Below the pieces are notes generated by a model that searched no databases, had not been told where the DNA came from, and worked only from the letters and a program-made list of their open reading frames with translations. Of a stretch of 64,000 nt of DNA, positions 482 to 14,930 are shown piece by piece. The position numbers were made by a program, and so were the translations under genes. This DNA is from a bacterium (GTDB lineage: Bacteria > Patescibacteriota > Microgenomatia > UBA8517), in contig CP129472.1 in the NCBI GenBank assembly GCA_030583725.1, positions 671,040 through 735,039 on the forward strand, given 5' to 3'. Each line of letters starts with the position of its first letter. Within the stretch, counting starts at the first letter, position 1.

Positions 482-1595
482 TCTTCTACAAGTTTAAAGG
501 TTGACTCGTCTCTCGAGCTCGCTCAGGATTGATAACCTCCAAAAGAACCTTTACTTTACAAATTAAATAGTTACTAATAAATAAGTTTTAAATAAGAAAG
601 AGCCCAAGTTAATTTTTATTCGTTCGCTTTGTTCGTGTTTACTGCTTATTTATTGTTAATTATGATTTGTATTGTTCTTTGAAATTGAAATGTAATATGA
701 CAGTACAATAAATTAATTTGCCACATTACGTGGTAAATATGATTTCCACTAAATGTGGTAATCAAGATACAGAATATCGATATATTCTGGTTCAAGTTGT
801 GACTAGGAGTGTGTAGAGATGTTTCTAAAACATTAAAAAAATTTAGAACCGTCACTTTTTGAGGATTTGATCCTGGTCCAGGATGAACGCTAGCGACGTG
901 CTTTAGGCATGCAAGTGGAGCGAGGCATAGCAATATGCCTAGCCGCGAACGGCTGAGTATAAAATAGGAATCTACCCCTTGGTGTGGAATACCTCATCGA
1001 AAGATGAGCTAATACCGCATAAGACCGCAAGGTGAAAGCGCTTAACCGCGCGCCGATGGATGAGCCTATTTCCCATCAGCTAGTTGGTAAGGTAAAAGCT
1101 TACCAAGGCTATGACGGGTAGGGGATTTGAGAGGATGACCCCCCAGAATAGGACTGAGACACGGCCTATACACCTACGGGTGGCAGCAACCGGGAATCGT
1201 GCGCAATGGACGAAAGTCTGACGCCGCGACGTCGCGTGAAGGATGAAGGCGTTTTCGTCGTAAACTTCTTTTGCCATATGTGTGAACATATGGAGAATAA
1301 GCACCTGCTAACTCTGTGCCAGCAGCCGCGGTAATACAGAGGGTGCAAGCGTTATCCGGATTTATTGGGCGTAAAGCGTTTCGTAGGCGGTTTGGTAAGT
1401 TAGACTTCAAAGACCACGGCTTAACCGGGGGAAGGGGTTTAATACTGCCAGACTTGAGAATTTTAGGGGCAATCGGAACTGTTGGTGTAGGGGTGAAATC
1501 CGTTGATATCAACAGGAACGTCAAGGGCGTAGGCAGATTGCTGGGAAATTTCTGACGCTGAGGAACGAAAGCTAGAGTAGCGAAAGGGATGGGGT

Positions 1596-2636
1596 AATAA
1601 ACTCTAGTTCCTCCTTTAAGTAATTAAAGGTTTAAAAATTCGACTATATGCTGGAATAACTGAGAATCTTAAGCTAGTTGTTGACTTAGGTTTTAATTCG
1701 GATAATACTTAATTAATGCCCAAATTGATAACTGAAAATGCTTTAAGTGCAGTCAATCAGCAGGGAAGATCTCGTAAGAGAAACCCTCAGAGACTATATG
1801 TCGAATATCCTACTAGTAGTAAGAATGAAATGTCTGACATAGAAGCAACTTTATTGGGTATTTTATACACCGATGGTTGTCTATCTAAAAGGAGTAAGAA
1901 TGCATGGAGATTTTATCTAAGCAACACTTCTTACATAATTATACAAGTATTTAAAAATTGTATGATCAATCTTTTTAAATTAGATGCCAAAAGAGTACGA
2001 ATATCTAAAAAACAAGTTAATGGAAAACCTTTTTACAGAGCAGTTGTAGATAGTGCATCATCTGGAGAATTTTTAAATTCAAAATATGGTACATTTCGAA
2101 CACTAGTTTTTAAAAGTGAAGATGGTAAAGAAATTTATCCTTCGACAAAATTACCGTTTAACAAAAATTCTAATCTCAAAATAATGAGCAAGTTCTTAAA
2201 AGTTGCCTTTAGTTGTGATGGTGGCATAAATTTATACGTAGCGAAATCAAAGTTTGGATACAAATTTTTGATTAGGAATGTATATTTAGCTTGCAAGCAT
2301 CCACAATTACAGATTGATTATCACGAACTTTTGAAAGTTCTTGGTATCGAATCTAAAATTATTAAGGGAGATGGAAAAATACTTATTCAAGGCAGAAATG
2401 AGTTGAATAAGTTTAGAGAAAAAGTTGGTTTTATAGAAGGTGTAAAAATAACACAAAATTCTAAATTTTGGCAAGGTGTCGAAAAGCGGAATGTGTTAAA
2501 TATCGCAATTGGTTCTTACAAAAATCCGAAAAAGATAATCAATCTTTCGAGGTTTAGAGGATAAAGATATAGTCCGATCTCATAAGCGATTATGAGACTA
2601 CGTGTTGAATCGTAGTAAACAAACACTTAGTTTGTT
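1596..2636 (+). mobile_element. group I-like intron in 16S (E. coli ~pos 790 region) carrying a LAGLIDADG ORF
   Basis: 16S sequence breaks after GCGAAAGGGATGGGGT and resumes at ATAACAAGGTCTGTAGAGACCCCTGTAGTTC. 3' part contains GATAAAGATATAGTCCGA (S-element-like AAGATATAGTCC). Boundaries approximate (+/-10 nt). Confidence 0.7.
1716..2564 (+). CDS. LAGLIDADG homing endonuclease (two-motif) encoded within 16S intron 1
   Basis: Motif 1 LLGILYTDGCLSK and motif 2 KVAFSCDGGINLY. Lies entirely inside the intron. Confidence 0.7.
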   Translation: MPKLITENALSAVNQQGRSRKRNPQRLYVEYPTSSKNEMSDIEATLLGILYTDGCLSKRSKNAWRFYLSNTSYIIIQVFKNCMINLFKLDAKRVRISKKQVNGKPFYRAVVDSASSGEFLNSKYGTFRTLVFKSEDGKEIYPSTKLPFNKNSNLKIMSKFLKVAFSCDGGINLYVAKSKFGYKFLIRNVYLACKHPQLQIDYHELLKVLGIESKIIKGDGKILIQGRNELNKFREKVGFIEGVKITQNSKFWQGVEKRNVLNIAIGSYKNPKKIINLSRFRG

Positions 2637-2951
2637 GATAACAAGGTCTGTAGAGACCCCTGTAGTTCTAGCCGTAAACTTTGCCTGCTAGCGATGGGCT
2701 CGTAAGAGTCCGTTGCGTAAGCTAACGCGTTAAGCGGGCCGCCTGGGGAGTACGAACGCAAGTTTAAAACTCAAAGGAATTGACGGGAAGGCGCACAACC
2801 AGTGGAGCATGTGGTTTAATTCGAAACAAAACGAAGAACCTTACCCAGTCTTGACATACAACCGTACATTTCTCTGGAAACAGAGAGAAATTCTTTAGAA
2901 ATATTGAATGGTTGAACAGGTGCTGCATGGCCGTCGTCAGCTCGTGTCGTA

Positions 2952-3835
2952 AGATAACACTTTGCGACCCACCAAAGTAATTTGGTGTGAGAAATCTGAC
3001 TCATATCGGGGGAACTATTGACTACGGATTATATTAGGTATAATCTAAAATCATACAATCCCGAGGGAAGTCGAGAATTTTACATGCTGGAATTTACTGC
3101 TCGTAAGAATTTAAAATTAAAAGTTTCCAATCTTCAAATGGAGATACTTTTAGGTTGTTTGCTTGGAGATGCTTGTATAACTAAACTTGGAAAAGTTCAG
3201 TTTGAACAAAGTATCAAACAACTTCCATATTTAATGTGGAAGTATAAAAAGTTAAACAATCTCGCTTACGGCATACCAACTTTTGTTAGTAGGTATGACG
3301 CAAGATATGGAAAAGAATATAAAAGTGCCAGATTCTGGCTCAGACAATATTTCAGACCATTAAGAGAAGAATTTTACCCTGAAGGAAGTAAAATTTTCCC
3401 TATTAAGTTTTCAAAATACTTTACTAAACTCGCTTTAGCAGTTTGGTATATGGATGATGGAAATATATATAAAGGTAGAAATATTAAAATTTCTGCTGAC
3501 AATTTTGATTCAAAGAGTAGGGAGGTACTTAAAAACTTACTTTTAACTAAGTTTGGTTTGGAAAGTACAATTCAGAATAGTGGGAAAATAAGAATTTCAG
3601 CGAAATCTGTCAATAGATTTCTAGGAATTGTTAAACCATATATTCATTCCAACATGTTATACAAGATTCTTTGACCCCGTAACGACTGATCCCCATAAAT
3701 ATTATTTATTTAAGAGGGAGAGATACATGATAATACGCTTGTATCAAACGTCAGCTCCTACATAGGTTTAAAACTTAAGTAGGATGAAGGTATAGTCTAA
3801 ATTATAATTATTTTTTAAATAAAATAATTGGAGGT
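2952..3835 (+). mobile_element. group I-like intron in 16S (E. coli ~pos 1070-1080) carrying a LAGLIDADG ORF
   Basis: 16S breaks after CAGCTCGTGTCGTAAGAT and resumes at GTTCCCTTCAGTGGGGTAACGAGCGCAACCC. 3' part contains AGGATGAAGGTATAGTC (S-element-like). Confidence 0.7.
3018..3674 (+). CDS. LAGLIDADG homing endonuclease (two-motif)
   Basis: LLGCLLGDACI and LALAVWYMDDGN motifs. Inside 16S intron 2. Confidence 0.75.
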   Translation: MTTDYIRYNLKSYNPEGSREFYMLEFTARKNLKLKVSNLQMEILLGCLLGDACITKLGKVQFEQSIKQLPYLMWKYKKLNNLAYGIPTFVSRYDARYGKEYKSARFWLRQYFRPLREEFYPEGSKIFPIKFSKYFTKLALAVWYMDDGNIYKGRNIKISADNFDSKSREVLKNLLLTKFGLESTIQNSGKIRISAKSVNRFLGIVKPYIHSNMLYKIL

Positions 3836-4143
3836 GTTCCCTTCAGTGGGGTAACGAGCGCAACCCCTGCCCTGAGTTAAATATTCTCAGGGGACTTCCC
3901 TCATTTATTGCGGGAGGAAGCGGGGACGATGTCAGGTCAGCATGGCCCTTATGACTGGGGCAACACACATACTACAATGGAGCCAACAATGGGTTGCCAA
4001 GCCGCAAGGCGGAGCTAATCCCATCAAATGGCTTCTCAGTTGGGATTGAGGGCTGCAACTCGCCCTCATGAACGTGGAATTGGTAGTAATCGCAGGTCAG
4101 CTATACTGCGGTGAATACGTTCTCGCCTTTTGTACACACCGCC

Positions 4144-13997: not shown

Positions 13998-14089
13998 GAT
14001 GTCGGCTCATCACATCCTAGGGCTGGAGAAGGTCCTAAGGGTTGGTCTGTTCGCCCATTAAAGTGATACGCGAGCTGGGTTCAGAACGT

Positions 14090-14387
14090 AAATAACATTG
14101 CGTTACACATTAGTAATAATGTGAGTAAATATCGACTAAAATCGGTGAAACCCTAGATTAGATTCGTCCGAGTCTAATTGGGTAATACCGAGGGTAAGAC
14201 AAAATCTTTTTAGATTTTGTATCCCGTAGAGACTGATTCGAAAGAAGAGGCATCAAATTAATTGGTGCAATACGTCGACGCCTATTAGAAAGACCTAGGA
14301 ATATGGTTAAAGTAACCTAAATTTCAGGAATAGGATGAAGATATAGTCCATGCAACTAGTAATAGTTGAATAACATGCGTGAGACAG
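14090..14387 (+). mobile_element. ORF-less group I-like intron in 23S at the E. coli ~2593 site (between GGGTTCAGAACGT and CGTGAGACAGTTCGG)
   Basis: 298-nt insertion exactly between the conserved AGAACGT and CGTGAGACAG. Contains GGATGAAGATATAGTCC (S element). Ends in G. No ORF of 60 aa or longer. Confidence 0.65.
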
Positions 14388-14810
14388 TTCGGACTCTATC
14401 CAGTGGGATCGTTCGAGTTTTGATGGGAGTTGTCCACAGTACGAGAGGACCTGGATGAAGGAATCCCTAGTGTGCCGGTTGTGTCATCAGATGCAGCGCC
14501 GGGTAGCTACATTCCTAAGGGATAACCGCTGAAAGCATCTAAGCGGGAAGCCCACCCAAAGATTAGAACTCGTAGTCCGAAAGGACGAGAGACCCCCGAA
14601 AGAATATCGGGTATAACCGGAAGTAGGTGGAAGCGCCGTAAGGCGTTAAGCTTAACTTTACGGATTGGTCGAAGAAAACCTTACAACATTGTATACAAGG
14701 TATATGGTGTTAACGATTAACAAATGTTTATTCAAACTTTGCGTAGCAAAGTAGTGGATAAACCTATTATTTCTAGTATAAAATTATCCTTCAGTTGTCA
14801 GGGTATTTAA

Positions 14811-14930
14811 GTCTTGGTGATTTGAGCGTGGTGGAACTACCTGAATCCATTCCGAACTCAGAAGTAAAACGCCATAGCGCGGACGATAGTTGTGGGGCAA
14901 CCTACCGCGAAAATACGTCATCGCCAAGAC
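14811..14930 (+). rRNA. rrf: 5S rRNA
   Basis: GTCTTGGTGA...CCGAACTCAGAAGTAAAACGCCATAGCGC...GCCAAGAC. Terminal helix complementary (GTCTTGGTG/CGCCAAGAC). 120 nt. Confidence 0.8.

Follow-up and report, generated by a model that had tools for sequence, protein, structure and literature searches.

The 64,000-nucleotide (nt) stretch of contig CP129472.1 analyzed here (positions 671,040 to 735,039 of the forward strand; hereafter the window, numbered from its first base) carries a single ribosomal RNA (rRNA) locus, which we interpret with high confidence as that of an ultra-small bacterium of the Microgenomates type of the candidate phyla radiation (CPR, or Patescibacteria) whose 16S and 23S genes are interrupted by six mobile introns, five belonging to group I and one resembling the IIC class of group II. 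Everything at the locus is of kinds already described for CPR bacteria. Our analysis adds exact positions for all parts of the locus; what we regard as modestly new concerns the group II intron, namely its anatomy and a shift of its insertion site between 16S positions 1398 and 1402 that is accompanied by a matching change in the RNA loop recognizing the exon (exon-binding site 1, EBS1).

The rRNA genes are interrupted at six sites

Rfam and ARAGORN searches identified bacterial small-subunit (SSU), large-subunit (LSU) and 5S rRNA together with transfer RNAs (tRNAs) for Ile and Ala, all on the plus strand. The 16S gene (855-5252; Rfam SSU and MAFFT alignment to Escherichia coli) is divided into the exons 855-1590, 2651-2950, 3831-4142, and 5126-5252, while the 23S gene (9840 to ~14690, the 3′ end being approximate; Rfam LSU and MAFFT) consists of the exons 9840-11834, 12605-13169, 13997-14089, and 14378 to ~14690. 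When joined, the 16S exons amount to 1475 nt, as against 1542 nt in E. coli, and the 23S exons to ~2966 nt, as against 2904 nt; both align with their E. coli counterparts from end to end, at 68% and 65% identity, respectively (MAFFT). Using the E. coli rrn operon aligned to the joined conserved blocks as the reference for site numbering, we found exactly six large interruptions, three in each gene, located after U788, U1078, and C1402 of the 16S rRNA and after U1917, U2500, and U2593 of the 23S rRNA, every other insertion relative to E. coli being 40 nt or shorter. An earlier annotation prepared from the letters of this DNA (the sequence-only reading) had already proposed six intron-like insertions, three per gene, and the exon alignment bears this out. 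Its approximate sites at ~790 and ~1400 of the 16S and at ~1917 and ~2593 of the 23S agree with ours, whereas ~1075 has to be moved to 1078 and ~2449 to 2500, and the third 16S insertion, given as ~4144-5126, was correctly recognized with exact limits of 4143-5125. As side features of the exons, the 23S gene contains expansions of 40 nt after E. coli position 275 (10130-10169) and 13 nt after position 150 (9992-10004), and several segments of 13-31 nt are deleted from both rRNAs relative to E. coli.

The correction at 1078 relies on a natural intron-less allele. In the relative L027 (CAZRJH010000011.1), the introns after 788 and 1078 are absent and both junctions are contiguous, which sets the second junction at GUGUCGU/GAGGUGUUCCC (the slash marks the splice site here and below). 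A placement at E. coli 1083, as obtained by plain MAFFT alignment and with an intron ending in U, was ruled out by L027 together with the exon-intron pairing described below; this 5-nt misplacement arises because the intron start AAGAU (2951-2955) mimics the exon sequence GAGGU. Comparison of L027 with window positions 852-4745 also showed that the group II intron is kept (~93% identical) while these two group I introns are missing, a presence/absence polymorphism within the lineage. The nearest relatives of the locus, found by scanning for the protein encoded in the third 16S insertion (ORF3) with one genome per species, are Microgenomates/Patescibacteria metagenome-assembled genomes (MAGs), in keeping with the CPR-like source suggested by the sequence-only reading.

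Five insertions have the hallmarks of group I introns

Judged by their sequence elements, five of the six insertions are group I introns, as the sequence-only reading had held: S788 (1591-2650, after 16S 788), S1078 (2951-3830, after 16S 1078), L1917 (11835-12604, after 23S 1917), L2500 (13170-13996, after 23S 2500), and L2593 (14090-14377, 288 nt, after 23S 2593), all on the plus strand. S788 contains a two-motif LAGLIDADG_3 open reading frame (ORF; 1716-2564), S1078 a LAGLIDADG_2 ORF (3018-3674), L1917 a single-motif LAGLIDADG_1 ORF (11973-12488), and L2500 a LAGLIDADG_2 ORF (13316-13873); L2593, at the I-CreI site, is ORF-less. In all five, the last base of the upstream exon is U and the last base of the intron is G, although for S1078 the terminal G (3830) holds only with the junction set by the intron-less L027. 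Moreover, in each case a guide located a few bases into the intron can be read from the sequence to pair with the exon end, with U opposite G (helix P1). The pairings are AGGGAU with GUUCCU (1607-1612) in S788; GUCGU with GCGAC (2964-2968) in S1078, with the U.G at the splice site; GUAACUAU with GUAGUUAC (11845-11852) in L1917, comprising 8 bp with a terminal U.G; AACGU with GCGUU (14100-14104) in L2593; and, in L2500, a short P1 of 4 bp (ACCU with GGGU, 13179-13183).

The elements of the conserved core are likewise present. In S788 and L1917, helices P3 and P8 are evident from inspection of the sequence, the P3 of S788 pairing 1638-1644 with 1800-1806. R elements lie at 1788-1798 (S788), 3679-3689 (S1078), 12496-12506 (L1917), and 13878-13888 (L2500), and S elements at 2564-2574 (S788), 3787-3797 (S1078), 13956-13966 (L2500), and 14338 (L2593). 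The window has four matches to the S element ARGRTATAGTC, all of them within these insertions, against a chance expectation of 0.1, and L1917 carries a variant of it at 12539 (TGATATAGTCC / UGAUAUAGUCC). The S element that the sequence-only reading had described as shared by five of the six insertions is indeed shared in this sense, with four matches and one variant; the exact 12-mer AAGATATAGTCC that it quoted is confined to two of the five group I introns. L2593 aligned over the full length of the Rfam Intron_gpI model (RF00028; 48.4 bits, E 1.6e-11), the only one of the five for which a full core alignment to the model was obtained. The same 23S sites are also filled in MAGs of unrelated phyla, namely 1917 in L014, 2500 in L030, L043, and L045, and 2593 in L021.

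Based on these elements, splicing of the introns appears likely to follow the usual route. In the precursor rRNA, the intron guide would pair with the end of the upstream exon to form P1 with its U.G at the splice site; the P3-P9 core would then fold, and two guanosine-dependent transesterifications would excise the intron, which would end at its terminal G. The predicted exon joins are GGGAU/UAGAG (S788), GUCGU/GAGGU (S1078), ACUAU/AACUG (L1917), UACCU/CGAUG (L2500), and AACGU/CGUGA (L2593). As a separate observation, four relatives (L004, L007, L009, and L012) possess an additional LAGLIDADG-encoding group I intron just before GAACAAGGUA, at 16S ~1500, where the window has none.

A family of group II-like introns at 16S positions 1398 and 1402

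The insertion at 4143-5125 (plus strand, after C1402; ORF at 4643-5077 in domain IV) is, on the grounds of homology and covariation, a compact group II intron that is most like class IIC and carries a LAGLIDADG gene. Its upstream exon ends in C, the intron itself ends in AAU, and no S element is present. The latter absence had led the sequence-only reading to suspect another class, and the homologs, domains V and VI, and EBS1 now identify that class as group II. The ORF3 scan returned 45 loci, 12 of which have an ORF3-type ORF at the same place in the 16S gene, the remainder lying in 23S insertions at 1931, 1951, and 2604. At the level of the whole element, 4143-5125 is homologous to 11 insertions at 16S 1398/1402, and the structural and covariation counts given below refer to 11 aligned sequences. 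Seven relatives at site 1398 have the boundaries GUACACA/intron...AAU/CCGCCCGUCA, while at site 1402 the window together with L002, L027, and L011 has ACACCGC/intron...AAU/CCGUCA. As both boundary types occur among homologs, homologous elements therefore occupy two sites four bases apart. A scan of metagenomes with the pattern GTGGRAAC-N(19-29)-AATCCGYC proved too loose, with 2 real members (L065 and L155, both at site 1398) among at least 120 loci.

Three other interpretations were considered and set aside. A group I intron was ruled out by the lack of a U at position -1, of a terminal G, and of R/S elements. Archaeal bulge-helix-bulge introns form a helix of 4 bp, with a 3-nt bulge on either side, between the first bases of the intron and those of the downstream exon. 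This arrangement was ruled out for 4143-5125, where the intron start CAAGG is identical, not complementary, to the exon CAAGG; the beginning of the linker (4143-4147) in fact mimics the downstream exon UCAAGG. Finally, fungal introns with 5′ linkers suggested that this intron might likewise lack a branch point, a notion that was dropped after domain VI had been parsed in 11 copies. On a side note, seven of the relatives (L003, L006, L009, L010, L027, L032, and L043) are deposited as 'uncultured Gammaproteobacteria bacterium' MAGs while having CPR-type rRNA, and in three of them (L006, L010, and L027) a 16S that is 67-69% identical to that of E. coli is combined with the CPR-type 1400 intron; these titles look like placeholders or errors of taxonomy.

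Anatomy of the group II intron

The 5′ part of the intron (350-500 nt) aligns well across the family, and RNAalifold predicted 57 pairs in it, 37 of them with compensatory changes. At its beginning (4143-4197), a variable linker of 42 nt (4143-4184) precedes UCGCGCGAGGCAG (4185-4197) and leads into UCGCG, in which a GCG core is the sole remnant of the usual GUGYG. Throughout the family, the alignment of the 5′ part shows variable linkers of 7-46 nt in front of a conserved NNGCG, the longer ones containing hairpins. The exon-binding hairpin (4446-4468) exposes the loop GGGCGGU (4455-4461), which pairs 7/7 with the ligated exons ACCGC/CC. Across the family, this loop follows three states of the exon (UGUGU with ACACA, UGAGU with ACUCA, and GCGGU with ACCGC): GGUGUGU faces ACACA/CC at site 1398, GGGCGGU faces ACCGC/CC at site 1402, and in L008 an exon substitution is matched by the loop, GGUGAGU facing ACUCA/CC. 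Between EBS1 and the intron-binding site 1 (IBS1) of the exon, eight copies form all seven pairs and three copies form six of the seven, and this covariation fixes the 5′ splice site in the window after C1402. A second exon-binding site was not found in the family in a search that was not exhaustive.

Directly before the ORF lie the domain II hairpin (4527-4570) and the J2/3 junction with domain III (4571-4638), in which the window has the motifs GAAGUCAGC, (C)GUAGUAG, and GAAGG. The corresponding family motifs, GAAGUCAGC, CAUAGUA, and GAAGG, form invariant columns with the window included, and the helices of domains II and III show compensatory changes. The same columns in L010 matched the Rfam model group-II-D1D4-1 with 31 bits (E 0.0013 in an 871-nt scan; gathering score 35).

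Domain V of group II introns is a hairpin of ~34 nt whose catalytic triad is AGC, or CGC in class IIC. In the window, it spans 5061-5095. Its lower helix of 10 bp holds a CGC triad and is followed by a 2-nt bulge and an upper helix of 4 bp, which is closed by a loop of 5 nt that is not a GNRA tetraloop. The triad with its G.U is invariant (11/11), and the 2-nt bulge is located on the 3′ strand five pairs above it; such a CGC triad is of the IIC type, as in the Oceanobacillus structure. In the 11 sequences, 98% of the alignment cells of the hairpin are paired and 10 of 18 pairs have changed on both sides. The resulting covariation score was reached by none of 500 shuffles, and slid partners pair in only ~40%. 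Three bases after domain V begins domain VI (5099-5122, followed by the 3′ AAU to 5125), with 4 bp, a bulged A (A5118 in the window), 3 bp, a loop of 6-10 nt, and the final AAU. All copies (11/11) have the bulged A at -8 from the 3′ splice site and terminate in AAU; the four basal pairs covary, and the upper three pairs are intact in 9/11 with six pair combinations. Altogether, the non-coding RNA amounts to ~420 nt in the family and ~550 nt in the window.

This architecture suggests how the element would splice. The domain I loop would pair across the exon junction, with five bases on its upstream and two on its downstream side, and domain V would form the catalytic center. The 5′ splice site, which by linker insertion would have come to lie 42 nt upstream of the degenerate GUGYG remnant, would be attacked either by the bulged A in domain VI (branching) or by water (hydrolysis).

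Weighing the assignment against alternative explanations

Several observations weigh against the assignment of the six introns and are collected here. The usual GUGYG is absent from the 5′ splice site of the group II intron. Rfam scans of 14.6 kb, 1 kb, and 181 nt returned only noise for 4143-5125, the two shorter ones with no group II match even at E ≤ 10, and the class was therefore derived from homologs. These homologs themselves stay below the gathering scores (28-31.6 bits versus 35 for RF01998, and 29.4 versus 49 for RF02003), and RF00029 gave no match in the window or in the homologs. The subclass of the similar Thiomargarita intron is disputed, being placed in IIB1 (Zimmerly and Semper 2015, PMC4424553) or in IIC (PMC13190283). 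As for the group I introns, the four that bear ORFs gave no Intron_gpI match at E ≤ 0.1 in the 14.6-kb Rfam scan, and L2593 falls 1.6 bits short of the gathering score of 50; the model misses the four because their cores are split by ORFs of 500-850 nt. The Rfam scan recommended by the sequence-only reading recovered the rRNAs and L2593, the latter below gathering, and no other intron. In addition, the group II copy of the window deviates from its family. Its domain V loop is UAACA, with the ORF3 stop codon UAA inside it, where the family has GAAAU; at the base of domain V, C is mismatched with A; in domain III, CGUAGUA takes the place of CAUAGUA, an A-to-G change in an otherwise invariant motif; the upper helix of domain VI forms two of its three pairs; and domain I contains a private insertion of 73 nt (4203-4275). 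This insertion has two hairpins, is absent from L027 and all other family members, and occurs as a single copy in the window. From its sequence, the window copy could be a weakened ribozyme, although its EBS1 loop and branch A, as well as the domain V triad and bulge, are intact.

One could go further and regard this copy as decaying, having lost self-splicing and depending on its own LAGLIDADG protein as a maturase or on a host helper, or else leaving the 16S gene poorly functional. The altered domain V loop, basal mismatch, domain III substitution, weak domain VI, and 73-nt insertion would all fit such decay. We nevertheless consider it unlikely, given that ORF3 is intact, that the EBS1 loop matches the junction in 7/7 positions, and that the triad, bulge, and bulged A are retained; the identical sequence in three further sequencing runs implies that the organism persists with this copy, and the window contains no second rRNA operon. 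A different explanation would deny the element ribozyme character altogether and view 4143-5125 as an intervening sequence (IVS) removed by host RNases without ligation, in the manner of the 23S IVSs processed by RNase III, so that the 16S rRNA would be split at the decoding center. The lack of any Rfam intron match within it, of GUGYG, and of group I boundaries speaks for this view, and a survey of CPR genomes leaves room for unclassified insertions and IVS-type elements (PMC11270868). Conserved and covarying domains V and VI and a group II D2-D3 motif speak against it, however, an exon-binding loop that tracks its site would serve no purpose in an RNase-processed spacer, and known IVSs reside in 23S helices 9, 25, and 45 rather than at 16S 1400 (PMC11270868), which makes this explanation quite improbable.

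Lastly, the interrupted genes could be an assembly chimera, as the sequence-only reading had itself considered, or a dead rRNA pseudogene, pieced together from different rRNA copies or organisms. Metagenome-assembled rRNA loci are generally prone to chimeras, and exon 1 is only 82% identical to that of L027, compared with 91-93% for exons 2 and 3. Yet window positions 3143-6577 recur with 100% identity in three independent assemblies of separate sequencing runs (DRR859381, SRR24881069, and DRR779146). This stretch takes in part of S1078, the third and fourth 16S exons with the group II intron between them, and genes downstream; a chimera is very unlikely. The exact ORF3 protein is also found on an 841,695-bp NCBI MAG contig, L002 and L027 carry the same intron at the same site, and the exons are contiguous with E. 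coli, their ends joining precisely at conserved rRNA positions without loss or duplication. Taken together, we regard a chimeric or dead locus as extremely improbable, and favor rRNA genes interrupted by five group I introns and one IIC-like group II intron.

Five LAGLIDADG endonuclease genes

The five ORFs within the introns are intact, and a hidden Markov model search against LAGLIDADG_1/2/3, as the sequence-only reading had advised, placed all of them above the Pfam gathering scores of 22.5-25 bits (38.8, 120.3, 77.3, 93.6, and 139.3 bits). Pfam, relatives in the PDB, and the motifs visible in the sequence agree with its count of three two-motif and two single-motif proteins. ORF1 (1716-2564, plus strand as are all five; LAGLIDADG_3, in S788) extends from the core, sharing sequence with the R element, across the P8 loop to a stop codon that borders the S element; a PDB search found no sequence relative of solved structure. 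ORF2 (3018-3674; LAGLIDADG_2, in S1078) and ORF5 (13316-13873; LAGLIDADG_2, in L2500) are both I-SceI-like and 32% identical to each other, ORF5 matching I-SceI over its full length (PDB). The true start of ORF2 is probably the ATG at 3138 because the Pfam match begins there (residue 41). Both motifs of ORF1 and ORF2 are readable directly in the sequence. ORF3 (4643-5077, in domain IV of the group II intron) and ORF4 (11973-12488, upstream of the L1917 R element) are single-motif LAGLIDADG_1 proteins with 31% identity, and as each matches both halves of two-domain structures of the I-OnuI family (PDB), they are expected to act as homodimers; the three two-motif enzymes (ORF1, ORF2, and ORF5) are expected to be monomers.

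Biochemical work on I-ShaI, an enzyme from CPR, showed that it cuts its intron-less target site (PMC11270868). By their family membership, the five proteins of the window are predicted to be active endonucleases as well, which would cut intron-less ribosomal DNA (rDNA), so that repair from an intron-bearing copy would spread the introns at the DNA level. In the group II intron, coding and ribozyme functions overlap, in that the last six codons of ORF3 constitute the 5′ strand of domain V (5061-5080) and its stop codon lies in the domain V loop. Translation of ORF3 and folding of the ribozyme would compete. In relatives with proteins of 155-164 residues, the ORF3-type frame apparently extends further.

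Comparison with known rRNA introns

A 16S intron of Thiomargarita namibiensis and other Thiotrichaceae was reportedly described by Salman et al. (2012, in PNAS). On a IIC backbone, the Thiomargarita intron rns-1396 carries a LAGLIDADG gene of the single-motif type within domain IV; EBS2 is missing, all members of the family have a 5′ linker (PMC13190283), and the family is said to be confined to Thiotrichaceae (Liu et al. 2026, Genome Biology and Evolution, PMC13190283). The window family shares with it the location in a bacterial 16S gene, 2-6 nt away, the compact IIC-type structure, the 5′ linker, the single-motif LAGLIDADG in domain IV, the apparent absence of EBS2, and the conserved IBS1 and 3′-exon contact. 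It differs in its host, CPR here and a gammaproteobacterium there; the two were compared by description, and among the protein matches to ORF3 none bore the name Thiomargarita.

Closest in host is the set of insertions surveyed in 380 16S and 348 23S genes of CPR bacteria, where 48% of the 16S and 82% of the 23S genes are interrupted, a single gene holding as many as 16 insertions (PMC11270868). According to that survey, group I-like insertions are found at many sites, with LAGLIDADG_3 in the 16S only and several 16S sites unreported outside CPR, whereas group II-like insertions are restricted to 16S 1400, usually with LAGLIDADG_1, and are labeled 16IS9. Such CPR insertions were described by Brown et al. 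as absent from transcripts, as relayed in PMC11270868. The window copy resembles 16IS9 (Tsurumaki et al. 2024, J Bacteriol, PMC11270868) in host clade, site, and single-domain LAGLIDADG_1 as well as in lacking a reverse transcriptase, and the group II likeness of both is weakly seen by Rfam. Unlike 16IS9, which was classed by Rfam hits alone, the window copy is below any Rfam threshold and its assignment rests on domains V and VI, the EBS1 loop, and homology. The split between sites 1398 and 1402 with its matching EBS1 change goes unmentioned in the text consulted (PMC11270868).

Among fungal rRNA group II introns, those bearing 5′ insertions have reportedly in most cases lost the branch-point A and are released in linear form (PMC4424553, PMC4748821). 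With the fungal mitochondrial IIB1 introns (Li et al. 2011, as summarized in PMC4424553 and PMC4748821; Mullineux et al. 2010), the window family has in common the location in rRNA, the replacement of reverse transcriptase by LAGLIDADG, and the apparent loss of EBS2. Deviation from GUGYG by a 5′ linker is common to the window family, rns-1396, and fungal group II introns with LAGLIDADG homing endonucleases, while the window family differs from fungal IIB1 in keeping the bulged A at -8 (11/11), in having a CGC rather than an AGC triad, and in being much shorter. The group I introns occupy sites identical or adjacent to known ones, such as S795 and S1078 of Thiomargarita, L1917 of Coxiella, and the L2593 site of I-CreI (established knowledge; PMC3984707, PMC11270868); they share the P/Q/R/S core and LAGLIDADG ORFs that sit in peripheral loops and reach into the core, without substantial difference.

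Flanking features of the locus

The 16S and 23S genes are 4.6 kb apart, and the spacer (5253-9839) holds protein genes. Among them, a gene on the opposite strand at 5970-8285 encodes a 771-residue homolog of TraG/VirD4-type coupling proteins, and another, at 8372-8827, encodes a PIN-domain protein. On the plus strand, tRNA-Ile (GAU; 8859-8932) and tRNA-Ala (UGC; 9479-9552) follow, both identified by ARAGORN and Rfam. A terminator-like hairpin is located 3′ of the 16S gene (5385-5406), and a promoter-like site matching in 11/12 positions lies at 9181-9209, upstream of tRNA-Ala and the 23S gene. Because of the protein genes in the spacer, the hairpin after the 16S, and the promoter-like site before tRNA-Ala and 23S, the 16S gene is probably transcribed separately from tRNA-Ala/23S. 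The first 21 bases of tRNA-Ala (GGGCCGTTGGCTCAGTTGGTA, 9479-9499) are duplicated 48 nt upstream (9431-9451), and this duplicate is perhaps what is left of a tRNA copy that was disrupted. The locus closes with the 5S rRNA on the plus strand (14813-14929; Rfam 79.4 bits).

Implications

For practical purposes, standard 16S surveys will miss or mis-size this organism, as the sequence-only reading had anticipated: S788 splits the site of the V4 reverse primer 806R, which has two mismatches in addition, the intron after 1402 splits the 1392R/1406F site, and the gene extends over 4.4 kb. Automatic annotation fails as well, given that Rfam at default settings yields rRNA fragments and none of the six introns.

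In biological terms, the LAGLIDADG-bearing class of group II introns is common in CPR genomes, contrary to the 2026 statement that it is confined to Thiotrichaceae (PMC13190283), a confinement that would be contradicted if the CPR and Thiotrichaceae copies were homologous. Our comparison raises the possibility, which we put forward tentatively and consider doubtful at present, that the CPR 16S-1400 introns and Thiomargarita rns-1396 form one widespread, LAGLIDADG-mobilized IIC lineage that was retargeted from 1398 to 1402 through its exon-binding loop and kept its branch A despite the 5′ linker. If this were true, the lineage would pose the question of whether a lariat forms from a splice site tens of bases upstream of the GUGYG remnant, and it would offer a natural system for the co-evolution of a homing enzyme acting at the DNA level and an exon-recognition loop acting at the RNA level during a shift of the insertion site.

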